A stretch of 64,000 nucleotides of DNA. Source: Phoronis australis. Lineage: Eukaryota > Animalia > Phoronida. The stretch is from positions 9,722 to 73,721 of the forward strand of contig NMRA01000201.1 of NCBI GenBank assembly GCA_002633005.1, read 5' to 3'. The translations under genes and the position numbers were made by a program. Below the pieces are notes generated by a model. That model ran no database searches. It was not told the DNA's origin and saw only the letters and a list, made by a program, of their open reading frames with translations. Shown here piece after piece: positions 12,192 through 62,617 of this stretch (positions are counted from its first letter, which is position 1; the number at the start of each line of letters is the position of its first letter).

Positions 12192-12393
12192 ATGGCTTCT
12201 AGCAGCTGCCTGGTCAACGGCGTGGGTGGCGATGACGTGGGCATGAACATCCTGCGTGTGTTGGAGCGCGGTCTACTCATGACTCGATTCTACCCTAAAA
12301 AGAAGCCAGAGAAGCGGACGTTTCAGGTGAAGCTGGAGACCAGGCAATTAGTCTGGCTTCGAAACTATGGACAACTGAAGCCGGAGGGTACAG
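12192..12393 (+). CDS. PLCG1: PLC-gamma coding exon 1 (N-terminal PH half)
   Basis: MASSS...[14 protein letters not shown]...PEGT; upstream TTTCAGCAG acceptor (12144/12147) implies a 5'UTR exon; GTGAGT donor, phase 1. Confidence 0.93.
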
Positions 12394-42300: not shown

Positions 42301-45300
42301 TCCATAAAAAGGTCAATGTTCCTTATAACCAAACCTAATTTTTATTTGGAGCAAGCCTGTTGCACACAGCTCTGTTACATTAAGTCTTCCTCACGCCACA
42401 ATTACCTACGGTTGTAACGAAAAAGAAAGACGTTTTGCTGCATTTTTTGGTATTTCAGCAACCCTTGTGGCATTTTAATTTGTATTGCATTTTTTGATAG
42501 TGGATTGCTGGAATGGGCCAGATGGTATGCCGGTCATCTGGCATGGCTACACACTGACCACTAAGATCAAGTTTGAGCAAGTACTTAAGGCCATCAGGGA
42601 CAACGCGTTTCTCACCTCCGAGTAAGTTAGTGCTTAAACGATATACTACAGACCATGTGATTTCTCGTAAAATTGAAACTGGACAAGGTTTTATTTTGAG
42701 TTTCAGCTATGCTATTTTCTTGTTAAGTATGGCCTTATTTTGACATTGTGGACCTAGTCGAATAAAATTAAAATGCGAATATTGATTAAAAAAATGATGT
42801 TAAGGAGGCCAGCTCTTACATAAAAATAACTTATTTTTAATTGCTTTGAAAATTATTACCAGGATATGGATCTGATCAATCTTAATTGTTCTCAACTCCA
42901 CATGACATCACTCTGGTCAGTGAGTAAGGAAGGAGTTAAAGGCATCAGTTTTTTACCACCTTGCACATTAGTTTTGAGAAATGTGTGTAGTTAAAGCTAT
43001 AATAGCTTCGTTTTAATGTCAACATGGTTGCGAATACTTCCATTATGTTCCAACCATCTGTCAAGAAGAAACTTTTTGATTTAGACTAATATGTTAATAA
43101 AGCTGGCCTCTAATTGTCCCTTGCTTAGAAATAATTTCTGGCCCTGGGAAGGTCTGGCAATTTGTTACCACTCGAGACCAGGCTGGGTAAGCTGGTGTGA
43201 TTACACAGGTCATTGTATTTCCCGAGCATGGTCTCGAGCAATAACAAACTCTCAGTACTTCCCAATTCCAGAAATCCCTTCTAACTAAAGAACAACTTGA
43301 TGTCAGTTTTGTAAGAGTAAGTGATCTATCTCTTTTTCTGACACAAGACTGCTCCTCAATACAACAATGATCCTTTCCAGGTGTTTCTACATTTTTGTTG
43401 GTTTTTATCAGGTATCCTGTCATCTTGTCTATAGAGAATCACTGCCTGTTACCACAGCAAAGAAACATGGCCAAGGCGTTTAAAGAAATATTTGGAGGTT
43501 TGCATTAAGTTAACAACCAGTTTTTATTTGACGTTCCGGTCCTATTTGTTATCATCATCATGGAAATGTTGTCCGTAAACTAGTCAAAATGCTACCGCCT
43601 AATATTGTTGTTCTTTATTTTTTCATTGATAGTGAGGTTTAATTTAGGTGTCATTGCTTACGGTATAATGCAGTTTTCCAAGTCATTACTACTGGTAACT
43701 CTTAAGGCACTACGTTTGTTAAAACCTTGAATGTTTTACTATGGACTCCTTTGTTTTGGTTTGTTACTTCGTCAAGTTTACGCTTTTTATTACACCCGAT
43801 AAAGGAATGAACCAATTGAAGTTAGTGATTGTTTTAAAAGGAGGATTTGCTGCTGCTTACTTGGTCATTCCAGTTTAAGTTTGTAATCTTGACCAAGGAT
43901 CTCAACTTAATCTAATTTAGCGCTCTTGGGTGATTCATGACTGGATTCTCATGTGGAATATGTGAATGTAATTAGTTTTAACGCGTGACTTTTCAATAAT
44001 TTGTGCATAATCACTCAGTGTTCACAATAAAACTAACGCACTTTTTTAGATTGGGTCTTTACTTAGTTAAGGCTGCTATAATCCTGCCTTCCGTTCAATA
44101 AACTAACTTTTGATGTGGTTTCTGGACTGATACTTCCTTATTGCTTGAGATCATGCTTGGCACATGACAAATTAACTTGCCGAGCCTGGTCTGAAGCAAC
44201 AACGAAAAATCATCTCTAATTTGGGACCAATTTCGGAACGCTAAATGCTGTAAATTAAAAGTTAGTTTTTACCACGGAAGTCTAGTTTATAGCTATAATT
44301 ATATCTGTACACTGCTCGCTGTTTTCGTGTTTGAGTAGTTCTCCATGACCATCATCATTTCGGTCGTTGCAGACATGCTACTTACCAAAGTTTTGGACGA
44401 AGATGCCACACACATGCCCTCACCTAACCAACTGAAGGGAAAAATCATTCTCAAGGTAGGCACTGATTTTATTACAATATTACCAACATCATCATCATTT
44501 TCATCGGCATTTATCTAATGGGAGTAGGATTGGCATTGATTTACATTTAGTGGTAGTTTTTAAAATTTCTATTTCATACAAGATGTGGCACTGACTGCTA
44601 TAGTTATGTCATAGCTTATTTTTTAGTTTTTATTTGTACTCGATATTTATATGTACAACACAAAATAATTCTTGATTTTTTTTACATGATATTGTATGCT
44701 AATTATATGTATGTTTATATTTTGGTAATCTTGTATATATCACTAAGATTCTTGGTACTTTTGTTTAATTACTAGTGTAAGTCTTGTTAGGTGGCCTCTT
44801 TTTATTCTGAGGATGATGTTGGCACATCAAAACATGTCAACACTGCTAAATACATCTCGTTATTTTTCGTAACATGTATTTATGTCCTTATTTTTAATGC
44901 CTGGGCCTAAAAGTCACTTGTCTTACATTATATCTTCTGCGTTTAACATTTAAAAAAGTAAGCATAGGTCATGAAGACACATCATCTTGAAACTATATTG
45001 ACACTGCTGTGAGACTTTAGCTCTGCGATGCTCTTTTTGTCGAATGTTTAGAAGCCAAATGACATGTTTTTCTGCCTAATTATGTCAAATGGTGTAATTT
45101 TTTTCATAATGGGATATGAAGCTATTTTCTTGTTAACAGCTGTGCTGGGTCATGCAACACTTTGGAAGATAAGTTTGATTGTTGCATGATATCAAAAACC
45201 TTGTTCAGTAAGTTCTATATAACTTACATGTTGCTAGGATCCTGATTTTTAAACTCTGTTTGTCACTCTAACAGCACAGGAAATTACAAGAGGGAGAGGG

Positions 45301-48300
45301 CACAGAATGGCGGGAACAGTTGCCAGCAGACGACAGTGCGTGTAAGTCTAGACAAAACCTCTTAATTGTTCGCTAACATCGACTGTACATAGGCTTTGAA
45401 CTTGGTTACATTCAAAATGATGTTCATTTCTGCATTTCTGGTTACCTAGTGTATTCATTCTCCCAAATAAGACAGGACTGTATTCCATAATGCAAAACAC
45501 TTCCAACACACTTGTACCAGGTAATCTGCATTTATGGCATAGACCTTGTGAATTTTCTACCGTACTTCATCATTCAAGCCTCGACATCATATGAGTTCAG
45601 TGACGGGCAAAATGCTCGCCTTTCTCTAGCATTATTTTACGTAGTCTTTCGTGATCTCTCTTTTCTCACAAGAAACTTGCTCTACCGAACGCATTCTAGG
45701 TCATAAGCGGATCCAGGGGGCGTCAAGAGGTCTGTACCTCCTTTTTTCCTTGATTTTAGTGATATCAAATCTAAAATTTTCAAATAGTTGACTTGGATCC
45801 TCCATTTTTAAAAAAAATCCTTGATCCAACCCCCCTTTTAAAAATCCTGGATACACCCCTGTAGGTATAGCTCAGCAGCCATGGCTTTTCATTTTGGCTA
45901 CTCTCAGCAAGAACGTTTTGTATTGTATTTTCCGATTGAAAATGGTGAAATTTTCCTGTAGAAATTCAAGTGATCTGCTAGACATCTTGTTTGCGTATCC
46001 GAGAACGATTGAGTTTACGATGCTCAAATAGTATTCTACCATCTTTCTCTTCTGCTTGTTAGTGATTTGCTGGATGTCACCAATTCATTTTTTTCTTCAG
46101 CTATTATGTTGGACTCTGATCTGCTTTCATCTGTCAGAAATGGTATCCTGTACTTAGAGGACCCTATTGACCATGTGAGTAGGACTTGTATTATGACAGC
46201 TCATCCTTAACATAGTGTGTTTCTGTTAGACAAGCAATGTGATTTTTTGTTATTTTTGTTTTGTTTTTGGAGTACTTTGTTGCACTGTGCCATCAACATG
46301 CAACGTCCAAATGGCTCACCCAAATGTGCAACATGAAAAAAAGCTTTTTTCGATGAAAGGAATCGCGTTCCGTCTTTGACCTATCTTATCGAGTTTGCAG
46401 CCACAATCTTCAAGTGTTATGCATTGATTGCTGCTACTAGTGTATCATCGGTCACTGATGTTTGCTTTTGACCTTTGAGTTGGAGAGACCAATCAAGTTG
46501 AGACTGTTTATGGATTTGCTAGCTGTGCGAGGCTCTGCTCGTTCGCACCAGTATTGCATACCCTAACAAATCAATTAAACAATAGCCATCATGCTCTCTG
46601 TGATTCGTCTTCACCAGGAATGGTTCCCGCATTACTTTGTGCTGACTGCAAGCCGTCTGCATTACTCTGAAGAGACGACGTCCAGTCACCAGGCTGACGA
46701 GGACGAGGCTGATGCAGCAGATACACCGCCCTCTTCTGAAGAGGTAGACATGTTTTGTAATACTCCTAGTTGTTGAGAGTCAGTGTGACTACTTACCTAT
46801 CTAGGAGAACAGTGAAAATGAGAATAATTACAGTTGTTGTACTATCCATTCACGAACAACTCTTAGAAAGTAGAAAATGATGAAACTTCTTAAAATTTTT
46901 TAATTGATATTGATCACTGTTTATGCAATTTGAATGTTACTTTGGCACATCAATTTTGTGGTCCTGGCAAAAAACAAATCTTGAAATAAGGCATGTTAAT
47001 GCTTTGTTGGCTACAGTTATACTGTGGTCAAAGTTCATAGATGCTAGTTGCCACTTATAAACCCTTCTTATGTTATCTTACGTTATACTAAGGTTGTGTT
47101 GGATTTTATAAAAATGGCCAAATTTGGCCAACTTCAGAACATCATATCTCACAAATGGCTGATCGGATTCAAGTGAAACTTTCATATACCATGCTTTATG
47201 CACTGTTCTCAAAAATATTATTAGGAACTGTGTTTCAAATGTTCCACTTTTTGCGTGAAGGGCTATCCGAAAATATAACCTGTATGATTTTCATGAAAAA
47301 TTTTTTGAGATCTCACTTTATAAAATTTGATCATGTTATTGATGCTGTTGTTTTGCTATCAATGTACCGTTTTTTGCTAAATTTTACTAAAAAGGCATGG
47401 TCACATTACCCAATTAATAAGAGATTAATAAAAAACCAACAAGCAAATTCTACAAACTTATTGCTTTCAGAAAAATATATTTTTACTGAGTTAATATCTG
47501 TAGTTTTCCAGATATTCTGCTGAGTGTGCAGAGTTGTCAATAAGTTACTACATAATCTAAATGAGTGTTTTTATCTCTTTGTGGCCCTCAAATTCAACCA
47601 AGACATTTTAACTAGTGAGATTGTTGACGATTGGGTCCAAAGAAATGGTTTTGCAAAGTGAAACTTGAGCGTTTTGTTGACTGACTTTAAGTCATCCTCT
47701 TATGTGCTGTCCAGGACATGCCAAATGATGAGCTGCACTTCAGTGAGAGGTGGTTTCATGGCAAACTGGAGGGGGGACGAAAGTGTGCCGAGCAGCTGTT
47801 GAAAGATTACGCCCCTCTCGGTGATGGCACCTTTTTGGTGCGCGAGAGTGAGACGTTCGTCGGAGACTTCACCCTGTCCTTCATGTGAGTCAACACTTAG
47901 GCATCCTAGTCAGTATAGGCTACTTGTTATGGTTGAGTCGTAATGAATTTAGAAAATGGCAGTTCGAAAAGAAGGCATAGTTGGAACACAGTCAATACAT
48001 TTTCAAAGTCTTCATGAATCTTAGCTCAACAGACCTTACAGATGATTAGTTGACCAAAGAGCTGGTTTGGTGGTCCTCATGGTCAACTTGCCTACCGATT
48101 GTTATCGCCAAGAGCTGACTGAAAATATACTGAAAACCAGAGAGCCCAACAAGTTCAGACCCACCAACAAACGTTGTCCTTTTTGATGTTCTTTGATCGT
48201 TTTATGCAATTTAGTTTAATTCAATCTTGTTACCAGTGCAATTTACTTGGCCACATATTCAATATCGTCTGTTGACAACCGTGTTTTCTTATGGCCAAGA

Positions 48301-51300
48301 AGCAGACAATCAATTTATTATTGACAGGTAACTGGTTCCGTACATATTGCTTTGTATTTATCAATCAAAAAGTAAATTGGTTGAACAGGGTTATCACCTG
48401 CATGCCTACAGCATCTACAGGTGATGTATTGACTAACAGAGGATGTACTCTTTTGTCAACTTTTAAGAGGCATCTTTTGCACAAATCAACAAAATTCAAT
48501 GAAGTTGGCAGATTGAATTTCACATCTGAAAAAGGTAATTGGCATACGTGACAATATGGTTGGGTTAAGAGTCACTATATGCTCATTTTACCTCTGAATT
48601 GCTTCTTTCACTAGTGACAATATGGTTTGGTTAAGAGTCGCTATATGCTCATTTTACCTCTGAATTGCTTCTTTCACTAGTGACAATATGGTTTGGTTAA
48701 GAGTCACTATATGCTCATTTTACCTCTGAATTGCTTCTTTCACTAGTGACAATATGGTTTGGTTGAGAGTCACTATATGCTCATTTTACCTCTGAATTGC
48801 TTCTTTCACTAGTGACAATATGGTTGGGTTAAGAGTCACTATATGCTCATTTTACCTCTCAATTGCTTCTTTCACTAGTGACAATATGGTTGGGTTAAGA
48901 GTCACTATATGCTCATTTTACCTCTCAATTGCTTCTTTCACTAGGTGCCAGTGGCTGGTCTTGTGCTACTCGGTCTCATGTAAACAAACAGGAAATTTGA
49001 CTTAGATATTGTTGATATCCTCATATTGTAGGAACTCAAATGAACGACATTAAATAATAAGTGTCTCCTGGATTTAACTTAGACTTTCTGAAATTAGAGA
49101 ATTATTGGTTTCTTTTTTACAATTTGAACTGTGTTGGAGAAATGTCTCATTTTGCATAATTTGTCTAATGATTCAGCAGCTCCTTGTCTGTCGCAAATGG
49201 TTCCTCTATGATGTTCTCATATATGCATATGCTAGAGAGAAGCTGCGAAAGCTGTGAAAACATACTCTCTGTGAGGGATGGTACCAGAAGTACCTGAATT
49301 TTACCAAAGGATGCGGAAGAGCTCTCCTTTAGCTTCAAACTCTGAAACAAAGGGCAAATTTATTTAGATAGTATTGAACAATAACTCTTCTCTCCATACA
49401 TCTAATGGTAGGAACCGTTTTGTTTATCTAATTGTGGTGCATGGCCATATGTTTAATTAAACAGTTGACTACTATATTTACTGAGAAGTTGCTTAAAGTG
49501 GAACACTTTTCCGAAACATAGCTTCATTCCCCATCCAAATACACACGATTTTGGGGGTGGCCCAGCTAAACTTAGAAGCTTTGACATGGTTCCACCCACT
49601 TATGCAGATTTTATCAAAAATCTTCTTAGTGTGTGATCTCACAATGTCAGGTCCACTGGAACTAACAAATAGTGTGGTGTGTTTATCAAATGTCTTTTTT
49701 GATGATAACAATCAAAAACCAGAAACATTGAAACTATGACTGTGTGGGATCCATAGGCTTATCAAATCCAGAAACTACAAACCATTATACCCAGGTTAGA
49801 AAGAAAGCATTCTTAAATATGTGTAAATTATGGGATGCAAACAAGTAATGTTTACCCATAATCCTGACCTTAACTAATAGATTTCTGTGAAAAATGTCTT
49901 GATTTAATGTATACTTCTCAGGTTTCATAAAAGGTACCTGGTTACAACTGAGGCAAAAATGATTACAAAATGCTCATTTTTTTCAGTTGTCAGGAGTTTC
50001 TAAGAATGGTGCGAATGTCTGTTGTAACTTTTCAAGATATTGCATTACATTAGCTTTAGTACTAACAGAACTTGAAAATTGTGAAGCTTTTTTGTGGCAT
50101 TAATAACACTTCGTAATAAAATGAGAAATTGAAATTTCTCTTGGTCTTCCACATTATGTCCTAAACGAATGCATATTTCTGTCCCACTAAGAGGTAAACA
50201 GACATACATTTAGTTCAGTCAGGTGACCATAGGGGTCGCCATTTCTTTGTGGGAGTTCTATGAGTGATAGTAGTTCTTATGTTTTGAAGGTGGCAGGGCA
50301 AAAACAACAATCACTGTCGTATCAAGTCGAAGCAGGACCGTGGTCAGATCAAGTACTACCTGATCAGCGACATGCCCTTCGACAGCCTCTACTCGCTTAT
50401 CACGCACTACCGCCAGTATCCCCTGCGGAGTCGTGACATGGAGGTTATCCTCAAGGAACCTGTGCCGCAGCCAGAGAGCCACCTTGGCAAACCGTGAGTA
50501 TAGCTAGATCTGGTCGGATTTTTGTTTTTTGTGGTCTGAGGTTCTTTGATGAGGGCTCTTGGAAAAGTTCAGACCTTTCTTGCCGAAAACAATCACTTTC
50601 TCACCCAGATGTCATGCACACGTGTATTTATTCATTGTACGAGGCTACTTTTTTGAAGCTATTAATGTGAGGTAATGCTGGTATCTTTCCTATTAAATAG
50701 ACATTGCGTAATTATTCAAAAATAATCACTTCATAAAAATAAATTCCAAAATTTTTGTTAACAACGTTGTTGAAAAACTTTCAACACTTTGCATTGTAGC
50801 TCATCCTTGCCAAACAAAATTTTCTGAACAATATTCATGACTAAGATTTTTTTGAAATCCTTTCACTTTCAGAAATGTGTTTGTGTCTGTTAATGTTTCA
50901 GCAAGTTATAAGACTTTGGTGATAAGCATTTGCCAAAATCTTGTACTTGCTTATATCAGAATTTGTGTCTTTGTGTATTTCTTAGCAAATCAGTCTGCTT
51001 TTCAGCAAGTGATGAGCCTTTGGTACCAAACGTTTACCAAAACCTTGGTTGACCAAATTTTTTTTGTTTCCGTCCTGATTTCAAAATACGTATTTTTTTC
51101 AGCTAGTTATAAGCCATTATTAAGCAAAGATTTGGTAAATCGTGTACATGTCAGTTGAAATTGTTCTTTGTCTCTCAACATGTCAAGATACGTCTGCATT
51201 TTAGCTGGTACAATGATGAGGTTGACCGAACAACGGCTGAAGACATGCTGAAGCGAATCCCATGTGACGGAGCATTCTTGCTCCGTCATACGGAGAGTGA

Positions 51301-54300
51301 CCGCCTCTCTTATGCAATATCGTTCAGGTGATGACGCATGTCACCGCCCTGAGTTTTTATCTCTACAAATTCTTTTGTATCTCTGCTTTGCATTTCCCTG
51401 TAGGGACCACAGACAAAACTCCACCACCTTTGCCCATTTATAGTCAAATGCATCAAGCCACAGACTGGTTATTTACCTTTCTATGTATGGAATGTAGGCA
51501 GAGCTTTGTCTGTCGATCCCTTCGTCAGTATAAACTTTCTTCTCTGAACTTTGCTTGAGATGACTTTAGTTGCACTTGTCTGTGACTGACTGTCAGAGAA
51601 CAAAGATTTATACTGTTAAATCTATACACTCGTCAGCCATTGTGCAAACCATGGTTCTTATGTTTTTGTTTTAGGTTATTTCCTGTTATGTCCGCGTTCT
51701 TGTGAAAGCATTTGATGACTGTGTATTTGGCTACAATTGGCAGAAGCCAGTGTTTTGTTCAACAATTTTTGCGAAAAATATAGTCACCCACTTTTCAGAA
51801 ATTTGGCTTTTGTCTTTAGAAATGAGCCACTTAAAAGTATTTTCAAATAAATTTGAACAATTGAATTGATGAATCACTTACTGCTATTGTCAAAAACAAA
51901 ATGTCAAACCTTTGTTTTGTGTTGTACTTCTGTTCCATGCAGTTGAGAATTTTTTTTAACGATGCACTAAAAATCCTGAGTTACTTTCTTTTTCTCAATC
52001 CTAAACTATCAATGAAGTATTATCAATAATCGTGGTGTGCACGGTGACCTCTGCTTGACCTCTGCTCTTGTCCTACTAACATATTGCGGACTTGCCTCCC
52101 CTGTGTGTTTAAATTAACAGCATGGTGTTTTGCATGGCAGATGGTATCACGAGAATCTGAGTCGGGAAGATGGAGAAGACATGCTCAGTAGGATACCGCG
52201 TAACGGTGCTTTTCTGATTCGTCGCCGGGTGGATGAGAGATATTCAAATGCCAAAGAGTATGCCATCTCGTTCAGGTAACAAAGAATACTTTTTTAAAGT
52301 TCTGCTAGAGTAATGGGACTTCATCGCAAAATGTCTTGTTTTTAAAAACTTATTGTCCATCAAATAGTGTGTCGCTTACAAAGTCTGGCATTTTGGCAGC
52401 AAAATGTGTCTTGACTATTTTATAAACTTCAGAGAACATCGTAGTAAAGCTTGTTCCAAAATCCCATGATGTGTCTGTAGAACATTCATAAAAACTGGTA
52501 AAAAATTTTGTTTAATACTAAACCATTCCAGAGTCATCTAATGATGTAAAATTTTGTTTAATACTAAACCATTCCAGAGTCATCTAATGATGTAAAATTT
52601 TGTTTAATACTAAACCATTCCAGAGTCATCTAATGATGTAAAATTTTATTTAATACTAAACCATTCCAGAGTCATCTAATGATGTAAAATTTTAACTGTG
52701 TAATATCTAGTAAATGCTGGCCTTAACAGTATTCATAGCACCCTGGCTTCTTTTTAAGAAATTGAACATTTTTGTGGCATGTTTTTTTAGCTTTTAAGCA
52801 TTATTTTTCTTTGAACATTTTTTGTGTTTGTTTTTTCCATGCTGTTGTGAATTATTTATTTCAATAATATTGCTATGGCAATTGAAATTTTACTCTATGC
52901 TACTTTCTTTTTTGCCATTCTTTTATGGAACTTCATCAGTTAAATGTCCAAAAAACACGTTCTTGGAATTATTTTTGGATGGGCTAGACTTCTTGAAGTT
53001 ATTAGCACTGACCACAACTATAAAACAACAAAATCCATTGTTTAATACAAATTATGTGATTTATTGAAATGGCCATGGCCCAAAGTATAACATGTACAAG
53101 ACAGAACATTGTCAGGTGTGTTACAAGCTGGATAATAAATTGTGACTCTTGAGAGCATGATGGACAAATTTTAGAAGTAGGATATCCGGAGTTCTCATGA
53201 GAGATTGAAATTTAGATGAAGTGGGAGAATGACAAAAACGATCACTTCAGTACTTAACCTGAAGGTCTTGGTACGCACTACAAACTAACACAAGGTGGTA
53301 TTCATCCTCTACAAATACTAGAACTTGTGTCAAATGAGCATGCCTTTTTAGCAAAATTTAGCATAAAAAGAATTTGAGGGTATATTGATAGCAAAGTGAC
53401 AGCATCAACGGCATGATCAGATTTTATTGGAAATGTTCAAGATGAGATCTCAAAAACACTGTTACAGTTCTCTAAAATATTACTTTGTTTTTGTTTTATA
53501 CAACTTTAAATTTTGGTGAACCATTCCTGAGATATGGTGTTCCAAAGTTAGCTAAGTTTGGAAATTTGTCTCTAAGGTCTTACATGAACTGAAGGGACTG
53601 GATGTTTAAAAACTAGATTCTGTGAGATGCTGTAGTTAGGCTTTGGGTGTAGCTATGACTGGCTGTGTTGTTTATTACAACTTTTTTTCAGCATGCTCTC
53701 CTTGCCAAAAGGCACCACAACTCTCATTTATCATCTTCAACTGATGTTCATGTTTCCAAAAATGCTTGAAATTACTATTAAGTCTTTGGAATGCACTAGT
53801 ACACTTTTGAAAGATGTTTTATCACTCAATTTTGCCATTCGTCAAGTTCCAGGATTATGAGATTTTGTGAACATGGAAAACTGCGATTAATATATTCTTT
53901 CCTTCATTTTCACCAGCTTGGAAGGTGGTGAATAGAAACTTTAACGTTTTATAAATTACTACAGCCTTGTATATTGATTGTTGTATTATCACATCATAGA
54001 AAGTGAACTTCAATATTATTCACTTGTCTGGCGTCCATTGTGTTACTGCACCACCATCTTCATTAAATTCTGTGTATTTGAAAATATTATGTTTCATGAG
54101 ATCACCGAAAAAATTTGATCTGGGTGTGATGCTGTGTTGAAATAGCAAAATTTGGAATGAGTTTCAACAAAATTATGTTTAAATAAAGTTTTTAACCTGA
54201 GACACAGAGTATGTTAAATGTATGTTTTTATATGTTATTGAAGTAGTAAGAGTCTCTTGGGTGATAAAATATTGTGTCCCTGTTGTCAACATTCATATGC

Positions 54301-57300
54301 ATGACCAGCACATCTCTACTTGAGGGGTACTCCTCATCCAGCCCCGATACCAAAATCTGCCCATGTAATGTCACCATTTGTTGAAACCCATTTCTGTGCT
54401 CTTCTAGGGCTGAAGGTAAGATTAAGCATTGCAAAATCAAACAGGAAGGTCGGCTCTTCACCATCGGCACAGCACAGTTTGAGAGCCTCATTGAGCTGGT
54501 GCAGTATTACGAGAAGAACCCCCTCTATAGGAAGATGAGGCTACGCTACCCTGTCAATGCCAAGGTGGTGCAGGACGTCGGACTGGTGAGCTTGTGCCAT
54601 CTGGGGGTTGAAAGATCAACTAAAGTGTTGGATGTTAATGATAAATGTTTTAGATTCAAAACGTTCCGTATGATTTAGCTCTGCAAAAACCTTCAAAATT
54701 AGTAATTTTAAAAATATCTGTCGATCCTTTCTGTTTTTTGTTATTTTGATTGACAAATATTTAACTTTGTTGTATTTATTTCTTCACGTCAGTAGCAAAG
54801 AGAGATAAGTCTTGCAATAATTTTTTAGATAAACAAATTCAACTTGCAGTTGACGAACTGAAAGAGCTTGACCAGAAAAAATTCAAACCCTAATCATGTT
54901 TTGGGTACAATTCTGAATTTATACTTGATTAGACTGGAGTCGCCACTTTTGCCACCACTGTGTTCAAAAGTTTTGATCGATTACGGTTATATGTATTTGA
55001 TTAAGATGGAGTTGACTTCTTACATTTAGCCGCCTGACGATGATGCCATATATTGTGGGCCCGACCTCTATATGAACCCTAATGATTTCACCACAAAGGT
55101 AAAAGGTCACATGTGGCATCCAGCTTCCAGTTTGATTGGCTGACTCATACTAACTGCTTGAGTGCGACAATGGCGTGACAAGGTCCCTTACATTGTCAAC
55201 GCCCCAGTTCTCACAGCCAACAGTTTTGTTCAATGACATCTCGGTTTGCATGTTCTGCGATATCCTGCAAAATACCGCATTGCCTGATTCTTGTAAATTG
55301 GTTACATACAACCTTTTGCAGGTGTTTTTTTCTTGACGGATACTCTATTGGGGACTATAATGCATGCATATGCAATAATTTGAAATAAGTCAAATCTTAA
55401 TATTCACCACCAATGGCTTTGTTACAATTGCTGCCATTTTCGTTCTTTATTCTCATCTTCCACTATTTCTGTTAATTATTTTATTATCATCACTCGTAAT
55501 TGAACTTGAAAAGATGAAAAATGTTTTAATCCTTGTTGAGTTTTTGCTCACTGGAGTGAATTCAATATGCCTTGCTTGACGACTGTGACTTCTAAGTGTT
55601 TCCCAATTCAATATGCCTTGCTTGACGACTGTGACTTCTAAGTGTTTCCCAATTCAATATGCCTTGCTTGACGACTGTGACTTCTAAGTGTTTCCCAATT
55701 CTCTTGCTGTTGTCATATTTTGAACCAGCCTTGTCAGCATATTGTCAATCCAGTTGATGTCTTTATTGTTCAATTACCTGCCAAAGATTAACTGTGCACG
55801 TGATATCGCAGAATGTGACTCATAGCTAGTGCATGAATTGAGTGCTTTTTGCTTTGTTTTGCCTAAACTAACCGCACACTGTTCTCCCTCCCTCCAGGAC
55901 TCGGATGCCGGCGCCATCTCTGGGGATGATGTCTACACTGATCCCAACGAGTACATCTCCCAGGTAGTTTAGACCTCAGTTGACCTATTTACGGATGGTG
56001 TGAGACATCCTACAAACAAAGAATTGTGGGATAGTGGTCATCCAAAGTAGCACTGCTAGTAAATGTAGAAATAAATGTTCTCTAGAGATCACATGAGTTT
56101 AGAAGCATTTTAAGCTGCCAGAAATCTAGTATACCTCAGAAACTATGGTATTTTTTCACTTGTTTACCACGCAATATGTCCGACAATTAAAATTCTGTTT
56201 TGTCAAATTTATTCGCAAACATAAAGAATTTTGTTTATTACTAACATGGTGTTTGTTGTGTAGATGTTATAAAACAACAATTGGCAAAGTTTCCATTATT
56301 TGTAGCAAAGTGAAAATGGTAATTTTGTGCAAAATAATTGGAGAATTACCACGGTAAACGTGTAGCCATCTATGCCATATCAACTGCCAGCTTACCAAGC
56401 AGACAACCGCCGTCATGGCATTTCCTTTATTCTGGATAGGATGACCCATATCCTACAAGTCTGTGCTCTACAATGCACACATATTGGTTTTCGTTCTTTG
56501 TGAAAGAGATAAGTCAAACTTCACTCTGATACATGCCCGTAGCTATTGACAAGGTTTCATAGAGTGGGTTCAACAAAGCAAGTTTTCTGAATGATGAATT
56601 TACACAAGCTTGCAACTCCAGATGTCGCTAGTGTTTTGTGAGAAACCCATGAGAATAATGGTGCACTCTTGCAAAATGGCCACCGATGAAATTGATTGAA
56701 TGGCTGTGCTGGAATCTTGCGTTGTGGGAGAATACTCTGAATGCTTCCATTACATAAACCAAGGCTTTTTTCGTTATTGTCTCATGAGTAGCATTGTCGA
56801 ATGCACCCATTTTAAAAAAAAATGTTCTTATTAATACTAGGAAAGTTAAACTTGTTAAACTTCGCAGGATATGATTTTCCTTCATTCCAAATTGTCTACA
56901 GGAAAGGACAGTGAAACTGTTTTATTTTGTAAAAGTTTGTTCGTGCCTTTCTGGGCTTAATGATCAACTTTTTACATTTAAGTTTATTTTGTATTAAGGT
57001 AATCACTAATGGTAACTTACATGTTTAAAAGTTGCGTGAAAACTTTACCAACAATTGAATTCCTAGCTGTAAAGTCTCTTTTTGGACATTAACCCATCCA
57101 CCACTGTTAGTTTATGCTGTTTTGCCAGTTTTTTATGAGATCCGTTTCTCTTGCATACTGATACATTTTGGCATGTTTTGTGTAAAACTGATGTCAGCTG
57201 GTTCTTATTGTAATCATTCTACTTTTGATTTGCATTTTACAGCAATTCTTCACTTATTCATCATGGCTGATAAATGAATTTCGATTTTGTCAAATTTGCT

Positions 57301-60300
57301 TACAAAAATATATCCATGGCTTGTACTGTCATGTCATAAAACAACATGTGGCGAAGTTTCCCGTATTTGCAACAAGGTAACCAGCCTTTAAAAAATGGAA
57401 AAACAACAGTTTTGGTAATTAGTTTTGTGTGCAATAAATGAAGAATTACCGTGCTCCTCAGTCAGCATGAGCATGTGTCTATCTGATCACTGACCTTGAC
57501 CTTGCCAATGTTTATCACTTCAATCTAGTACTGCATCTTGACAGATTTTAACGCAATCATCTAATGTGTAAGCGAACGTTATTACAATCTGGATTTCACT
57601 TACAGAGCTGTCTCCTTCATACTCCGTACATAACATGCATAGTGCTCATCGGAGGCTGAGTGTACTTGGGCACAGTTTTGGTGGATTATAAAAATAAAAG
57701 TACAGAAAATGAAGATCATTAGTTTCATTTCTATACTATTTTCTGGTATTGACGCAAGATTAGCCTACTTTTTGAAGTATACCCTGTGCATTGTTCTGTG
57801 CTATTGTTGTAATTTGCGGATGGTTTTTGCTGTCCTCAAAAAATTTTGGATTCACTGGACAGTAGTGTTTGGAAGGTAAATACTGAATGGATGATTATAA
57901 ATAGGTGTACTCGACTTCAAAAAATATTTTTCAAACCTTTTCTTAACTGGAGAATACTCTAAATGATTTCTGTTTGTTATGTATCGTCCAAGTGGTTTCC
58001 ATCCATACCGGAACATTCATGGTATCGGCATGAAAACAGTTGCCAGAAAGTCATCAGTTTTGGCACGGTTGGTCAACTATCCCGAAATTTGGCTGCTGCG
58101 TATAAGTTGCTGGTGGTACCTCAATACCATTTGAAAGTAGAAACCAAGTGAAGTGCTTTGGGGTGGAATTTTTTATGCAAAGTCGGAAGGTTAAATGTCA
58201 TTGGTTCAGTTTACATTGGCTGCAAATCTGTCTGTAAAAATATTGAATTGATGCGGTTTCAACCTTATCCTTTGTACCACGAGACAAATTTGAAAAAGCT
58301 ACAAAAATTCAAATCTAGTGGGCCTAAGAGAAGATAACGCCTCTCGTGACCTGGTTGTTACAGATTCGTGTGAAGGCTCTCTATGATTATCAAGCACAGT
58401 TAGAAGACGAGTTGTCATTCTGTAAGCATGCAATCATCACAAATGTCAACAAGCAAGACAGTGGATGGTAAGCATGTTTGGATACTTATCGTTGTGTCAC
58501 TTGTTTATAGGTTGACTGTAATCCCCTTGTAAAATGCAATCAACTATTAGCTGTGACACTGTCTTGGCACTGATAGACTTTTTTAAGTAATTAATCTGAT
58601 GATGAATGCAGCTCAGAGGAATGTATTGCACACTGCACTGAACATTAACTGTGAGCATTTGAAAATTTTTGGGAAAAGACGCAACTTATATATGGCATAC
58701 TCTTGCTCTTGGGGGTAACTAACTCAGTAGTCTGTAATATGCATCATCGTCTTCTTGACAAGAAGACAATTTGCAGCAGTACGAGAAAACAATAGAGCTG
58801 AAAAAAAACAAAACATTTTTCTAGCTTGGCACGCAGCTTGTTGTATTTTTCCTGTGGTTTCACTGTTCTGCTAGCTGTACTGTGAGTATCATGATAATAG
58901 GTCACACGGATAAATGGAAGTAATCTTATAGTCATGTATGGCCCTTGAGAAAGGTCACAATCTGGGACATCATAACTCAGAAACAGCTGATCAGATTCAT
59001 ATGAAACTCAGACACCATGCTTTGTGCATTGTTCTCCAAAACGCTTGTAGAAATTGTTCTTAAAATGTTTCACTTTGCTTGAGGGGCTTTTATAAATAGG
59101 ACTTTAATCATTTTCATGAAAAAGTTAATTTACATAAATTATACAAAAACTACATGATAATTTAGATAAGTGTACCAGCGTTTTGAGATTTTATATTGAA
59201 CATCAAACAAAATTTACCCAAGGCATGTTCTGGATACCATTGCCTTCTTATGAATGTACCTTAATTCGTTTTCGCTAAACATTAATAAAAACACATGGTC
59301 ACATGTCACAGTGAATGTCAGATTGGTATTAAGTCAAAAATCAAATTCTACAGGATTTTGATTTTTAGAAAAGACATACTTTTGCTGGGCTAAAAGCTAT
59401 AGTTTGAAAGGTAGTTGGCTTAACACACAGACTTATCAGTAAAGTCCTTCCTTAAATCACAAGGCTTATGGGAAAGTTGATGCCATTTACCTGTAATTAT
59501 GCATACCTGGTAATTACAGGTGGAGGGGTGACTACGGAGGTACTAAACAGGGCTGGTTCCCGTCGAACTACGTACAGGAAATAGAAGTACAGGAAGAGAC
59601 CGAGGACTCAACGCCATTAGGCACACTGCAGAAGGGCTCCATAGATGTCGTTGGTTGTATCGTTGGTAGGTTTTACTGCTCTGAAAATATATGGTTTTTG
59701 TAGACTTTTGTCTAGTATTATTATGTAATTATGTTTGATATTGATTTTCTTCTGTAGATTTGATTGAGTGTTGCTGTAGATTTAAGAATCTAAAAACAAT
59801 AGCTGCATTCCCGTGTATTTCAGATTCCCAGAAATTTTGCGAGAATCTTTTACAGGAATTATTTACACTAATATTTTGTGTCGGCATGTGATTAAGAATC
59901 CCTTTTCAAACCTCCCTGAGACTGACAGTTTTGTGTATGTTAATTGACTCAGAATGATCCTAATCCTAAACCTATTGATAAAACCACTGGCCAAATATAA
60001 TTCTTTGATTGTGCAGATGGTAGTATTCACTGCCACTGGCTTCATCAATTCCAATTTTGAATTTTGCTTGACTTCCTTAGGGCAGCGTTGTATATTTAGC
60101 TGTGTGCACTGAGAGATTTGCCTTAAATCTTCCATAATTCCTTCACTGCAGAGCCTGTGTGTGGCGAGAGGATGAACCAGGAATACGTTTTCCGCATCAT
60201 CGCTAACAATGGTGAGAAGTTAGAGATTGCGGCGCGGACACTCGAGGACATGAACGACTGGATTAGTACACTGAGGGAGTGCACTATACTGGCTGAGAAA

Positions 60301-62617
60301 ATGGTAAATGTTTGCTGCAACAATGTCACGTGACATGTTATTTTGGTGTCATCTGAGCAGTCACAAGTATCTTAACTCCAAATTCAATCTTTCTTCTAGG
60401 ATATCATATTTTTTATAATTCCTGTTCAAAATACAGTACACGTCGAAAGTATACAGTCAAAATAGCAAGAATTTGCAGATCAACATTGGTCTATCAGATG
60501 ATTTGAATCAGCAATCTTTTATGTCATATCAGGTTTTATTGTTCGAATTGGCTGTCTGCTCAGTAGACATTGTGGGGAGTGTATGTCTCCGTTATTGTGA
60601 ATGCCTATCATCTCAAGAATTCACCTCTATGCATAAATTGTCAAGTAGGCCATTTTGGGAACCTATTTCAGTCCCAACTGAGACTGAAGATTGTTTATCA
60701 GTTTTCTCCAGACTATCTCTCTTTAATTCATTTTTACCAGTTAAGAATGCATGTTACATGTTATGTCAATTGAAAAATACTGTGAAAATATAAACGTGAT
60801 ACATTAGAGCCCAACATGTGGTCCCTAAGTTGATAAAAATATCAGCGTTATTCACTTCGGCAGCCATTTTGTTGATGCACCTGTCCCGGCACCTGAGTTA
60901 GAAAATTGAAAATTAGGTAATATATGTCGTTTGTTTTGAAAAAGCATTATTTGAAAACAAGTGTTTACCAAACTGGTTTGCATTTAAATTCATTTCATGA
61001 AATTGTAATCAAAATGAAGTTGAGGGAAAAGCTTTGCTAGCGCAACTACAGCAGACGTTTCTGTTTCTCTGGAGTCATGTGCCTCTCATAGTAATTTAAA
61101 CCAGGTGTGATTGTGTTGTGATTTGTAGAAAATCGACTGCAAGAGAATGGAAAGGAACTACAACATAGCCCAGGAGTTGTCCAACTTGGTGGTATATTTT
61201 AGGACAGCCCACTCGCAGCAGCTCATGCCTGATGGTAGGTTATGCAACATGACTATTGCCTTTTGACATCCTGTTTCACTCAACACGACTATTGCCTTTT
61301 GACATCCTGTTTCACACAACGTGACTATTGCCTTTTGACATCCTGTTTCACACAACATGACTATTGCCTTTTGACATCCTGTTTCACACAACGTGACTAT
61401 TGCCTTTTGACATCCTGTTTCACTCAACACGACTATTGCCTTTTGACATCCTGTTTCACACAACATGACTATTGCCTTTTGACATCCTGTTTCACACAAC
61501 ATGACTATTGCCGCCTTTTGACATCATGTTTCACACAACATGACTATTGCCTTTTGACATCTGTTTCACACAACGGCAAGTGTCAAATGTTTTGATTTAG
61601 TTTTGTGTTCCTCTTAAAAATTGAGTTGTGTAATAAAACAAGTTAACACTTCTGTTTTTTGTGGTTGTGGTGCGGAGATCATAGGGGTTAGTTTTGACTT
61701 TAATGAATCACTACTTTGATGTTCGCTATTTTTTATTCATTGTGCTTGATGTATGCTTCAAATAATTACTAAACTTGAATTTCTTTGCCACTCGGGAACA
61801 ACGATTGTTTTTCAACAAATTTTTTTTGGTTGTTAAGAGAAGTTGAGGAATGATTGGTAATGAAGCTTGAAACTTGGGACTGAAGTCAGGGTGTATGAAA
61901 TGTGTCCTAGATTGCTTGTGTCATGATTAAGCGTTGTCGGCATATTTCCTGTTTTCCTGTTCCTAGGTTTACCAGGCCCGTACTATGAAATGATGTCATT
62001 TCCGGAAACCAGGGCAGAGCGATTGGTTTCTAAACTAAAGGCCAAGAAGTTCTTGCAATATCCTTTGAACAATTTACCATGTTCTTAAAGGGCATTCTGT
62101 AGTGAGGTGCTAATAAACAGTACTTAGTGGTTGTGAAATGTACCAGTATTGATGGAATGACGAAAGCTCATTGTACTGACTATTTACGGCCACATGTTTC
62201 TTATAGTCACCAGCCGATCATGATAACTTTACCTTGTCTGCTGATTATTTCACACACTGCTTTACTTCCGACAACTGTATGTCAAGTTGATAAAGTCAAA
62301 ATATTTCCTTTATTTGATGAAAGTGTCAGGTATTTTTTCAGTTCTGTTGAGAGCAACTTTGCCCAGAGGGCGCCGTAATTGCTTCGGTTTTCATTAAAGG
62401 TGTAAAATACATAAAACTGAGTTGTTTACACTATCTTGTATCTTTGTTTTGTTATCAAGATCATGTTATGTCTTTTTCTTAACCATGTTCACATACAACC
62501 ACCACCAGTTTAGTCGAGTCTACCCAAAAGGTCAAAGGTTAGACTCATCGAACTACGACCCCATGCCCATGTGGAACTGTGGTAGCCAGCTCATAGCTCT
62601 CAATTACCAAACTCCAG
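12192..62617 (+). CDS. PLCG1: Phospholipase C-gamma (PLCG1/PLCG2 ortholog), multi-exon; 3' end (rest of Y-box, C2) lies beyond the window
   Basis: 26 exon positions join in frame. Motifs: PH ([10 protein letters not shown]), X-box ([27 protein letters not shown]), two SH2, SH3 (ALYDY...WWRGDYGG...WFPSNYV), split PH, Y-box ([17 protein letters not shown]). Confidence 0.96.
12954..13886. mobile_element. Non-autonomous DNA transposon with 5-bp TSD (hAT5-like)
   Basis: CAGTGGCGGATCTAGG...CCTAAATCCGCCTATG termini; CCCTA on both sides. Confidence 0.7.
13191..13260 (-). pseudogene. tRNA-derived sequence (SINE head or tRNA pseudogene)
   Basis: Minus strand reads GTGGTGGAGCAGTGGTAAAG (A box)...GTGAGTTCGAGTC (B box) at tRNA-like spacing; acceptor stem not intact. 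Confidence 0.6.
14095..15647. mobile_element. Non-autonomous hAT-like DNA transposon with 5-bp TSD
   Basis: TIRs CAGGGCTCGACATTAG / TTAATGTCGAGTCCTG; CAGTG on both sides; repeated subterminal GGACAA motifs. Confidence 0.8.
15715..16793. mobile_element. TTAA-TSD non-autonomous element (Kolobok-like)
   Basis: TTAA|GGTTGTCTCAAAC...GTATGAGATAACC|TTAA; contains a (TAA)n microsatellite at about 16615-16654. Confidence 0.7.
18160..20268. mobile_element. DNA transposon remnant with GGGCAATTCC termini (Sola-like, tentative)
   Basis: GGGCAATTCC...GGAATTGCCC; flanks AGTT/AATT; TACGTCCGTCAC-like motif repeated near both ends. Confidence 0.6.
23880..25225 (-). mobile_element. Decayed non-LTR retrotransposon (LINE) reverse-transcriptase fragment
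   Basis: ORF 24875-25225 [18 protein letters not shown]...[12 protein letters not shown], followed by a frameshifted GVRQ-like RT motif near 24810; left boundary approximate. Confidence 0.85.
25272..25434. mobile_element. Short MITE of the CAG(G/T)GGCGGATC family
   Basis: TAGGGGTGGATCCAG...TGAATCTGCCACTG termini; related to the elements at 12954 and 45702. Confidence 0.6.
26255..26780 (+). repeat. Dispersed ~500-bp repeat family copy (others at about 34050, 41525, 47090, 53400 reverse, 58930)
   Basis: Shared consensus resembling AACTTTGGAACATCATATCTCAGAAATGGCTGATCGGATTC...CTTTCAGAAAA. Confidence 0.75.
31132..31281 (+). CDS. PLCG1: PLC-gamma exon 2 ([20 protein letters not shown]...[18 protein letters not shown])
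   Basis: TTTACAG/GTCAGT, 150 nt, phase 1-1. Confidence 0.95.
32167..32260 (+). CDS. PLCG1: PLC-gamma exon 3 ([31 protein letters not shown])
   Basis: ACACAG/GTGAGT, 94 nt, phase 1-2. Confidence 0.9.
33443..33950. mobile_element. PIF/Harbinger-like MITE
   Basis: TIRs AGACCATTTCATACTGAC / GTTAGTATGAAAGGGCCT; 3-bp A/T-rich flanks; repeated AAGTTAAC..CGTTCATAC motifs. Confidence 0.6.
35912..36094. mobile_element. Small element with 41-bp perfect inverted repeats enclosing a hammerhead motif (Penelope-derived)
   Basis: AAGAATCAATAAATCTATTACTGGACTTACGGTACGTGGAA (35915-35955) and its exact reverse complement (36051-36091). Confidence 0.75.
35955..35996 (-). ncRNA. Minimal type-I hammerhead ribozyme motif (one core substitution)
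   Basis: AGUGGC-CUGAUGA-A-GUCCU(GAGG)AGGAC-GCAA-CGUA-GCCAUU: stems I and II pair; ACGU palindromic stem III; GAAA reads GCAA. Confidence 0.7.
36822..36869 (+). CDS. PLCG1: PLC-gamma exon 4 ([15 protein letters not shown])
   Basis: TTTTAG/GTACGT, 48 nt. Confidence 0.9.
37571..37652 (+). CDS. PLCG1: PLC-gamma exon 5 ([27 protein letters not shown]), EF region
   Basis: TTGTAG/GTAAGG, 82 nt, phase 2-0. Confidence 0.9.
38781..38858 (+). CDS. PLCG1: PLC-gamma exon 6 ([26 protein letters not shown])
   Basis: TTTCAG/GTAATT, 78 nt. Confidence 0.88.
39515..39706 (+). CDS. PLCG1: PLC-gamma exon 7 (VYSEHF...[11 protein letters not shown]...FLDDPFR...FTHQE)
   Basis: TTCCAG/GTAATA, 192 nt. Confidence 0.92.
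40457..40572 (+). CDS. PLCG1: PLC-gamma exon 8 ([14 protein letters not shown]...[17 protein letters not shown])
   Basis: TTTCAG/GTATGT, 116 nt; X-box start with catalytic His. Confidence 0.96.
40607..40714. repeat. Perfect 12-bp minisatellite (GTCTGTAAGACA) x9
   Basis: Read directly; produces the spurious CKTV/TDCL ORF repeats. Confidence 0.97.
41357..41442 (+). CDS. PLCG1: PLC-gamma exon 9 ([28 protein letters not shown])
   Basis: CCGTAG/GTGAGT, 86 nt. Confidence 0.96.
41525..41975 (+). repeat. Dispersed repeat family copy (same family as 26255)
   Basis: AACTTCGGAACATCTTATCTCAGAAATGGCTGATC... Confidence 0.7.
42501..42621 (+). CDS. PLCG1: PLC-gamma exon 10 ([39 protein letters not shown])
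   Basis: TGATAG/GTAAGT, 121 nt. Confidence 0.96.
43412..43497 (+). CDS. PLCG1: PLC-gamma exon 11 ([28 protein letters not shown])
   Basis: TATCAG/GTTTGC, 86 nt. Confidence 0.95.
44373..44455 (+). CDS. PLCG1: PLC-gamma exon 12 ([27 protein letters not shown])
   Basis: TTGCAG/GTAGGC, 83 nt. Confidence 0.95.
44802..44842 (+). ncRNA. Degenerate Penelope-type hammerhead motif
   Basis: CUGAGGA-U-GAUGU(UGGC)ACAUC-AAAA-CAUGUC: stem II intact, palindromic ACAUGU stem III, G12 changed to A, stem I weak. Confidence 0.45.
45275..45341 (+). CDS. PLCG1: PLC-gamma exon 13 ([22 protein letters not shown])
   Basis: TAACAG/GTAAGT, 67 nt; a same-phase GTGCGT donor lies 6 nt upstream. Confidence 0.85.
45702..45861. 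mobile_element. Short MITE with 5-bp TSD (hAT5-like)
   Basis: CATAAGCGGATCCAGG...CCTGGATACACCCCTG; TAGGT on both sides. Confidence 0.75.
46101..46174 (+). CDS. PLCG1: PLC-gamma exon 14 ([24 protein letters not shown]), split-PH N part
   Basis: CTTCAG/GTGAGT, 74 nt. Confidence 0.93.
46618..46743 (+). CDS. PLCG1: PLC-gamma exon 15 ([19 protein letters not shown]...SSEE)
   Basis: CACCAG/GTAGAC, 126 nt. Confidence 0.93.
47090..47545 (+). repeat. Dispersed repeat family copy (same family as 26255)
   Basis: AACTTCAGAACATCATATCTCACAAATGGCTGATCGGATTC...; explains ORF 47155-47523. Confidence 0.75.
47715..47884 (+). CDS. PLCG1: PLC-gamma exon 16, nSH2 first half ([10 protein letters not shown]...[19 protein letters not shown])
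   Basis: GTCCAG/GTGAGT, 170 nt; FLVRES motif. Confidence 0.96.
48548..48943. repeat. 66-bp minisatellite x6
   Basis: GTGACAATATGGTTGGGTTAAGAGTCACTATATGCTCATTTTACCTCTGAATTGCTTCTTTCACTA. Confidence 0.97.
50290..50493 (+). CDS. PLCG1: PLC-gamma exon 17, nSH2 second half ([13 protein letters not shown]...[17 protein letters not shown]...[12 protein letters not shown])
   Basis: TTGAAG/GTGAGT, 204 nt, phase 2-2. Confidence 0.92.
51205..51327 (+). CDS. PLCG1: PLC-gamma exon 18a, cSH2 first half, alternative copy A ([41 protein letters not shown])
   Basis: TTTTAG/GTGATG, 123 nt, phase 2-2, no stop; paralogous to 18b. Confidence 0.9.
52141..52275 (+). CDS. PLCG1: PLC-gamma exon 18b, cSH2 first half, alternative copy B ([45 protein letters not shown])
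   Basis: TGGCAG/GTAACA, 135 nt, phase 2-2, no stop; paralogous to 18a. Confidence 0.9.
52500..52692. repeat. 46-bp minisatellite x4
   Basis: GTAAAATTTTGTTTAATACTAAACCATTCCAGAGTCATCTAATGAT. Confidence 0.95.
54408..54585 (+). CDS. PLCG1: PLC-gamma exon 19, cSH2 second half ([15 protein letters not shown]...[27 protein letters not shown])
   Basis: TTCTAG/GTGAGC, 178 nt, phase 2-0. Confidence 0.96.
55030..55098 (+). CDS. PLCG1: PLC-gamma exon 20a, cSH2-SH3 linker copy A ([23 protein letters not shown])
   Basis: ATTTAG/GTAAAA, 69 nt, phase 0-0; aligns with human EPDYGALY775EGRNPGFY783VEANP. Confidence 0.88.
55559..55701. repeat. 46-bp minisatellite x3
   Basis: AATTCAATATGCCTTGCTTGACGACTGTGACTTCTAAGTGTTTCCC. 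Confidence 0.96.
55898..55963 (+). CDS. PLCG1: PLC-gamma exon 20b, cSH2-SH3 linker copy B ([22 protein letters not shown])
   Basis: ACTAAC branch point, strong pyrimidine tract, CCAG acceptor, GTAGTT donor, 66 nt, phase 0-0; paralogous to 20a. Confidence 0.85.
56165..56352 (+). repeat. Second dispersed repeat family copy (others at about 27130, 34741, 57262)
   Basis: Shared CAAYATGKCCGACA...TTTTGTCAAATTT...TTTTGTGCAAAATAA..GAATTACC; old and diverged. Confidence 0.55.
58364..58467 (+). CDS. PLCG1: PLC-gamma exon 21, SH3 ([35 protein letters not shown])
   Basis: TTACAG/GTAAGC, 104 nt. Confidence 0.96.
58930..59445 (+). repeat. Dispersed repeat family copy (same family as 26255)
   Basis: CATCATAACTCAGAAACAGCTGATCAGATTCATATGAAAC...ACATGGTCACATG. 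Confidence 0.7.
59520..59665 (+). CDS. PLCG1: PLC-gamma exon 22 ([20 protein letters not shown]...[17 protein letters not shown])
   Basis: TTACAG/GTAGGT, 146 nt. Confidence 0.95.
60152..60303 (+). CDS. PLCG1: PLC-gamma exon 23, split-PH C part (...YVFRII...[21 protein letters not shown]...)
   Basis: CTGCAG/GTAAAT, 152 nt. Confidence 0.93.
61129..61234 (+). CDS. PLCG1: PLC-gamma exon 24, Y-box start ([35 protein letters not shown])
   Basis: TTGTAG/GTAGGT, 106 nt. Confidence 0.92.
61245..61574. repeat. 36-bp minisatellite x9 immediately after the exon 24 donor
   Basis: CAACATGACTATTGCCTTTTGACATCCTGTTTCACA; produces the [15 protein letters not shown] repeats. Confidence 0.97.
61967..62057 (+). 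CDS. PLCG1: PLC-gamma exon 25 ([30 protein letters not shown])
   Basis: TCCTAG acceptor; ends at the U12-type ATATCCTTT donor. Confidence 0.9.
62058..62492 (+). other. U12-type (minor spliceosome) AT-AC intron
   Basis: 5'ss ATATCCTTTG; branch site TTTTCTTAAC at 62474-62483; terminal AC at 62491-62492; removal restores [18 protein letters not shown]. Confidence 0.93.
62493..62617 (+). CDS. PLCG1: PLC-gamma exon 26 ([41 protein letters not shown])
   Basis: AC acceptor (U12), GTTAGA donor, 125 nt; Y-box signature. Confidence 0.94.

Follow-up and report, generated by a model that had tools for sequence, protein, structure and literature searches.

Alternative linker exons 20a and 20b of a phoronid PLC-gamma gene differ in the tyrosines of the activating loop

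A PLC-gamma gene with two duplicated exon pairs

The window analyzed here is a 64,000-nucleotide stretch of Phoronis australis DNA (contig NMRA01000201.1, forward-strand positions 9,722 to 73,721), which contains most of a phospholipase C-gamma (PLC-gamma) gene on the + strand. Alignment of 15 lophotrochozoan proteins by tblastn revealed colinear exons at 12192..62616. This colinear homology, together with the domain order PH-EF-X box-split PH-SH2-SH2-SH3-Y box, identifies the gene as a PLC-gamma. The gene runs on in the 3' direction past the last exon that was matched, and its C2 end found no match inside the window. In a quick version of the species tree, built from 21 constitutive exon pieces and with no phoronid among the sequences compared, the window gene falls inside a starred lophotrochozoan clade, and its nearest neighbour is the brachiopod Lingula (SH-aLRT 92, unstarred). 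The features on which the analysis centers are as follows.

12192..62616, + strand: in-window part of the PLC-gamma gene (PH, EF, X box, split PH, SH2-SH2-SH3, start of the Y box), placed by tblastn and the tree
51205..51327, + strand: putative exon 18a, the shorter (123 nt) of two versions encoding the cSH2 domain's first half, from tblastn, splice sites and translation
52141..52275, + strand: exon 18b, the longer version (135 nt), whose loop has 4 more residues, supported by the 18b-19 joint
54408..54585, + strand: exon 19, present once and encoding the second half of cSH2, from phmmer matches to PLC-gamma1 chains and RNA joints
55030..55098, + strand: exon 20a, 69 nt, 23 aa, conserved A-type cSH2-SH3 linker; codons for the Y775-like tyrosine at 55051-55053, the Y783-like tyrosine at 55069-55071 and Pro at +3 at 55078-55080
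55099..55897, + strand: intron between 20a and 20b, 799 nt, with a branch-point-like CTAAC 30 nt before 20b
55898..55963, + strand: exon 20b, 66 nt, 22 aa, diverged linker copy without a Y775-like tyrosine; codons for the Y783-like tyrosine at 55934-55936, followed by Thr, and for Tyr at +6 at 55952-55954
58364..58467, + strand: exon 21, start of the SH3 domain, from joints 20a-21, 20b-21 and 21-22 and tblastn

Exons 20a and 20b are each bounded by AG and GT, share phase 0-0 and lie between exon 19, which matches the PLC-gamma1 cSH2 domain at E 8e-26 by phmmer, and exon 21. A sequence-only reading had singled them out as alternative, alignable linker exons in phase 0-0, and its two peptides match our translations exactly. 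Splice sites, phases and shuffle tests agree with that description. The two peptides align with a score of 41 against a shuffled mean of 3.2 +/- 6.4 (0 of 5000 shuffles reach 41), and the two DNA sequences with a score of 35 against 8.5 +/- 6.4 (0 of 2000 codon shuffles reach 35). The DNA alignment sets a 3-nt gap right on the Y775 codon, which would fit an independent origin. As in tandem duplicated exon substitution, the exons are adjacent and homologous, share a phase and encode the same protein segment; one copy alone fits the length of homologous linkers, which measure 22-27 aa in single-linker homologues. The same reading went too far in stating that both exons are missing from the open reading frame track, since 20b sits in a 48-aa stop-to-stop frame at 55826-55972. 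Nor are such exons always missed by annotation, as public mollusc gene models carry counterparts as isoforms.

The second duplicated pair, 18a and 18b, lies just upstream, such that the two pairs stand around the single exon 19. Both lengths are again multiples of 3, and 18b is spliced to exon 19 in 19 RNA reads. Exon 18a encodes Cys at the R687-equivalent position and Thr at the R696-equivalent position, while 18b encodes Arg at both. We take the R696-equivalent Arg to be part of the phosphate pocket. In PLC-gamma1, R687 couples to the cSH2-SH3 linker, and the R687W substitution shifts the closed state of the linker (PMC6035297). Long forms of exon 18 are present in models of Owenia, Capitella, Paralvinella, Lineus and Tubulanus. 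In a tree with insert columns dropped, seven long copies including 18b, from chiton, annelids and nemerteans, group at 92/80, unstarred. A single clade of 18a and 18b is rejected (p-AU 0.0002), and holding the chiton exon-18 pair together is not (p-AU 0.145). The exon 18 duplication thus predates the window's lineage, and the chiton Liolophura shares the pair.

Elsewhere in the gene, the first intron measures ~18.7 kb (window 12392-31128), and a weak tblastn match at 33235-33315 (E 1.1) is probably due to chance. Intronic repeats at ~52960-53560, 56170-56400, 58960-59050 and 59310-59360 attract RNA reads of either orientation, in which mismatches and loose ends are frequent, and are likely dispersed elements.

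Splicing of exons 20a and 20b

To describe splicing, RNA reads were aligned to window positions 52000-59800 and then to 54990-56020. Three stranded raw-read runs of one study (X1, X2 and X3) and one contig run (X4) were matched by species label; ~18-19% of each of X1-X3 was used, such that counts are low, and tissues are unspecified. A joint was listed when 3 reads from 2 starts supported it within one run. Three of the four single-inclusion joins occur in all three raw-read runs: 19-20a (3, 2 and 1 reads in X1, X2 and X3), 20a-21 (5, 5 and 3) and 20b-21 (9, 2 and 3). The neighbouring joints 18b-19 (8, 8 and 3) and 21-22 (22, 19 and 7) were recovered in the same runs. The fourth join, 19-20b, is thin, being seen in one of the three runs as 3 X1 reads whose 13 loose letters before 55897 equal the end of exon 19 (agreement 1), and it falls below listing as a joint in the 52000-59800 alignment. 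The contig run X4 has zero depth on both exons. In total, 14 reads join 20b to exon 21 and 13 join 20a to it. The junction-read check proposed with the sequence-only reading thus bears out that both exons are used as alternatives, and the RNA excludes both of the cases named as fatal to it, that 20b is never spliced in and that 20a and 20b are both constitutive.

No 20a-20b join was listed in X1-X3 in either alignment, and no 19-21 join was listed in X1-X3 in the 52000-59800 alignment. At these counts a Poisson estimate gives a chance of 0.004 of missing a join present in 50% of molecules (0.19 on halved counts) and of 0.34 of missing one present in 20% (0.79 on halved counts). The tandem inclusion and double skipping that the earlier reading suggested were not seen here, but both lengths are multiples of 3, both forms appear in mollusc gene models, and at this depth minor forms of either kind may exist.

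Inspection of read depth indicates that some of the 20b signal has another source. Intron depth is ~1-7 outside repeats. In X3, a depth of 3.4-4.3 at 55830-55899 runs from the upstream intron through 20b and falls to zero past 55970, such that part of the 20b-21 signal reflects incompletely spliced RNA. The stretch upstream of 20b at 55826-55897 is open in frame and follows an AG at 55824-55825; X3 RNA begins after 55829, covers ~55830-55897, then extends across 20b and on into exon 21, and this coverage is probably incompletely spliced. A longer in-frame 20b starting from an acceptor at 55826 is the less likely alternative: the frame is open, but zero joints or loose ends mark that site. The variants listed from the reads include 14 across 753 nt of non-repeat intron and none across 135 nt of exon, a weak difference (P about 0.08).

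Strict exclusivity of neighbouring exons can arise from steric hindrance, U12 mismatch, frame-shift decay, or docking-site/selector RNA pairing. Steric hindrance would call for a branch point no farther than about 50 nt from the upstream donor. The first three are set aside for 20a and 20b by an intron of 799 nt, a CTAAC 30 nt before 20b, GT-AG borders throughout and lengths divisible by 3. Branch-like pentamers do lie 33-51 nt past the 20a donor, and an unusual distant branch point is conceivable. Docking/selector pairing would require a conserved intron element able to pair, in competition, with sites next to either copy; a search for it gave no convincing candidate, the inverted repeats being short or imperfect among the 25 listed of 32 pairs. 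Regulation of the choice by splicing factors is our default guess. Two unrelated tandem repeats of 46-nt period are present nearby, at 55559-55701 after 20a and at 52502-52685 after 18b; in the former, copy number varies among reads.

Linker residues and their distribution

Residues were placed by a hand count along rat PLC-gamma1, anchored on the residue numbers in PMC6035297, and the Y775/Y783 register is backed by alignments of Chaetopterus PLC-gamma with rat PLC-gamma1 and of 20a with the frog linker. In this register 20a holds both a Y775-like and a Y783-like tyrosine, as originally read, with a spacing of 6 in place of the 8 of vertebrates; the second tyrosine is followed by Met, Asn, Pro, Asn, Asp and Phe. 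In contrast, 20b has no upstream tyrosine, again as first described, and its Y783-like residue is followed by Thr, Asp, Pro, Asn, Glu and Tyr. Despite its divergence, 20b keeps the reading frame, the splice sites, the Y783-like tyrosine, Pro at +3 and Asn at +4.

To place these residues in context, linkers were extracted from 157 cluster representatives by a parser that demanded Pro at +3, of which 127 were parsed and 30 dropped (fragments, read-through models or sequences with no Tyr-x-x-Pro). The +1 residue is Met, Ile, Val or Leu in 103 of the 127, and cnidarian single linkers carry His there. Asn at +2 is present in 20 of 127 and is kept in lophotrochozoan A linkers, but it also occurs in the chiton B copy and in Paralvinella. 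At +6, Phe is found in 107 of 127 and Tyr in 3, one of them mis-parsed. The downstream tyrosine that the sequence-only reading ascribed to 20b is thus present, but its case as a new site is weak: the slot is usually Phe, the A-type Lingula linker has Tyr there too, and the residue in 20b looks like a conservative Phe-to-Tyr change. The upstream Y775-like tyrosine is absent from 25 of 127 representatives (28 by script, 3 of them mis-parsed), including hemipterans, mites, ticks, octocorals and Octopus, which indicates that its loss is tolerated in many lineages. In Octopus it is absent from both copies, whereas mollusc B copies mostly retain it (5 of 6, at a spacing of 5), such that its loss is no class mark of a second copy.

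The distribution of second copies was read from isoform lists for 30 clusters, holding at most 15 members each, all of them predicted models. Among the members listed, 7 of the 14 lophotrochozoan clusters, all molluscs, have two or three types of linker: Octopus, Liolophura, Mercenaria/Ruditapes (three copies), Aplysia, Haliotis, Biomphalaria/Bulinus and Sinanodonta. The Plakobranchus representative has two linkers as well. The other 7 of the 14 show one linker type among the members listed (Lingula, Dreissena, Patella, Gigantopelta, Lineus, Tubulanus and Pomacea), and a second type was found in 0 of 16 clusters of hemichordates, echinoderms, amphioxus, arthropods and corals on the same basis. 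Second copies persist across four mollusc classes. The linker is skipped altogether in one sea-cucumber and one ant model. In Octopus the models contain A, B, A and B together, or neither; A and B also occur together in models of Aplysia, Biomphalaria, Bulinus, Plakobranchus, Mercenaria and Sinanodonta, and a skip model is present in Haliotis. The 8 full-length models of the chiton Liolophura show single inclusion only.

At the +1 position, mollusc A copies have Met, Ile or Val (6 of 6) and B copies have His or Tyr (6 of 6), against Met in 20a and Thr in 20b. Exon 20a is A-type, with a mean score of 82.8 against A copies and 44.2 against B copies. Exon 20b scores 36.7 and 31.3 in the same comparison, which gives no clear B-type assignment, and is most like the linkers of Owenia and Lingula. 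In the linker tree the branch leading to 20b has a length of 0.98, compared with 0.12 for 20a. The tree, built on 22-27 aa, is mostly unresolved; neither a clade of 20a and 20b (p-AU 0.30) nor a single clade of all second copies (p-AU 0.27) is rejected. It is compatible with one old duplication or with several, and with 20b being orthologous to the mollusc B copies or not.

Proposed tuning of the activation switch and rival explanations

PLC-gamma activation depends on a single short loop carrying the on-switch tyrosine. In vertebrate PLC-gamma1, Y783 once phosphorylated becomes a ligand of the enzyme's own cSH2 domain, in competition with the C2 domain, and draws cSH2 away from the catalytic core; the loop is required for activation and dispensable for autoinhibition, such that swapping the linker should alter activation only (PMC7004563). 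According to the same source, soluble kinases require both Y775 and Y783 and receptor kinases only Y783, and how the two loop sites cooperate is called an open question. We put at about 0.62 the probability that 20a and 20b are tandem-duplicated linker copies which enter the transcript between exons 19 and 21, for the most part singly, and which tune activation rather than add an adaptor dock. Exon 20a would provide the standard two-tyrosine switch with an aliphatic residue at +1. Exon 20b, which lacks the upstream tyrosine and has Thr at +1, would be expected to bind cSH2 less well, and loss of the Y775-like site would make it a poorer route for soluble kinases, leaving a 20b enzyme that may be a higher-threshold or receptor-kinase-biased form. 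A difference in kinase input is plausible because 20b has no Y775-like tyrosine and soluble kinases need both sites (PMC7004563). The PLCG1 C-SH2 preference is listed as pY-hydrophobic in PMC3514216, from which the Thr of 20b departs; the motif is a rough guide only, since the pY783 peptide itself stayed below threshold with the isolated domain in the array of that paper. Given how common Y775 loss is and the His at +1 of cnidarian single linkers, the changes in 20b need not lower activity. The choice between 18a and 18b likely swaps the reader half of the same switch, which would add a second level of tuning.

The expectation that inclusion is mainly single has its rival in independent cassettes, where forms with both exons (two activating tyrosines in series) and with neither (kinase-deaf or scaffold-only) would be made and relevant. 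Such forms are in keeping with the multiple-of-3 lengths, with the combined and skipped mollusc models, and with loop-deleted PLC-gamma1 that remains folded and autoinhibited (PMC7004563). Against this, neither a 20a-20b nor a 19-21 join was listed in the three runs, the mollusc entries are predicted models, and the chiton's 8 models include one linker each; we consider independent cassettes unlikely. The assumption that the choice matters at all is challenged by the view of 20b as a tolerated, drifting duplicate, spliced into an enzyme that behaves much like the 20a form, or present as a leaky minor form. Its long branch speaks for drift, as does the occurrence of Y775 loss, Phe-to-Tyr at +6 and a non-aliphatic +1 each in single-linker homologues, and some of the reads behind it come from incompletely spliced RNA. 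However, the features retained in 20b and the persistence of second copies in four mollusc classes argue otherwise, as do the near-equal numbers of reads joining 20b and 20a to exon 21 and, weakly, the absence of exon variants, and on balance drift strikes us as improbable.

Two further explanations keep the functional difference but place it elsewhere. The isoforms might differ chiefly by adaptor docking, with 20a recruiting Grb2 through a pYxN motif, as the sequence-only reading proposed, and 20b offering another SH2 site at its +6 tyrosine. Exon 20a does supply the Asn at pY+2 that Grb2-family SH2 domains need, a residue kept in lophotrochozoan A linkers, but its motif is pY-M-N-P, and these domains reject Pro at +3 (PMC3514216). 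Moreover, Asn at +2 is shared by the chiton B copy and Paralvinella, the Y783-like tyrosine already serves as the intramolecular cSH2 ligand (PMC7004563), and at +6 an aromatic residue is conserved across homologues. Docking as the chief difference is hardly credible, and we do not retain the Grb2 proposal. Alternatively, splicing could pair 18a with 20a and 18b with 20b, giving each isoform its own cSH2 and its own tyrosine ligand. Short exon 18 does accompany an A linker in the single models of Chaetopterus and Lingula, and long exon 18 accompanies a linker of 22 aa with spacing 5 in those of Owenia, Capitella and Paralvinella. The 8 full-length chiton models comprise long with A (3), long with B (2), short with A (3) and short with B (0); the missing class would suit fixed pairing, but the three long-with-A models do not. 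Other molluscs swap the linker with only short exon 18 seen, and in our reads 18b-19 is frequent while 20a accounts for about half of the joins to exon 21, which suggests molecules with 18b and 20a. By the usual SH2 layout, moreover, the +1 to +6 specificity loops would fall in the single-copy exon 19. Such fixed pairing is highly unlikely.

A broader form of the preferred reading, activation tuning by 20a and 20b, holds that the whole activation switch is rebuilt by splicing in lophotrochozoan PLC-gamma, with 18a/18b as reader and 20a/20b as ligand, a biased and regulated pairing, and several enzymes of distinct kinase inputs and thresholds. This extension is tentative, and we doubt it more than we favour it. 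If true, one gene would achieve through exon choice what PLC-gamma1 and PLC-gamma2 do in vertebrates, and the 20b form would be a natural test of Y775/Y783 cooperation. A gene with natural two-tyrosine and one-tyrosine loops and two versions of the cSH2 half offers a 2 x 2 set of variants for studying that cooperation.

The pair belongs to a known class, that of substitution events between tandem duplicated exons, or homologous mutually exclusive exons (PMC9741552), in which adjacent homologous exons conserved across species replace one protein segment. The window gene departs from the class in having two pairs that flank one constitutive exon, and strict exclusivity is here something we infer. 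Use that differs between tissues is typical of the class, though no strict part of its definition. The main text of PMC9741552, whose gene lists stand in supplements, holds no match for PLCG or phospholipase. Within the described systems the nearest analogue is the FynB/FynT exon pair (PMC9741552, PMC2119231), which likewise provides duplicated alternative exons over a linker just after an SH2 domain in tyrosine-kinase signalling. In Fyn the exchanged segment spans the SH2-kinase linker and the beginning of the kinase domain, whereas in PLC-gamma, a lipase, it contains the activating phosphotyrosine itself. Vertebrate PLC-gamma1 (Y775/Y783) and PLC-gamma2 (Y753/Y759) share the domain order and the linker position (PMC7004563), with a Y783-like tyrosine matched in both window exons and a Y775-like one in 20a. 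Vertebrates diversify the switch by two genes and the window gene by exon choice, with a tyrosine spacing of 6 against 8 and a 20b devoid of the Y775-like site. The on-switch of a signalling enzyme hereby joins the ancient duplicated-exon events, in an animal branch little studied for splicing. The literature searched, with subscription journals largely outside it, contained no account of PLC-gamma exons that alternate in the linker or in cSH2.

Databases already list the mollusc forms, as uncommented isoforms, which limits the surprise. Predicted isoforms of Liolophura (XP_064611127-35), Octopus (XP_036366319-21), Mercenaria (XP_053401757-67) and Biomphalaria (XP_055891168-73) contain two linker copies or three, the A-like one leading where the model has them in tandem, and the chiton set also has short and long exon-18 forms, like the window gene. 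These models are automated and carry no functional note, and most of their B copies keep the Y775-like tyrosine, unlike 20b. Venerid clams show a third linker copy (P0090, P0092). In models of Aplysia, Biomphalaria and Bulinus an additional basic insert separates the B linker from SH3, and a single Apostichopus paralogue has an acidic one (P0213, P0133, P0225, P0226, P0195); this insert is possibly a further alternative exon.
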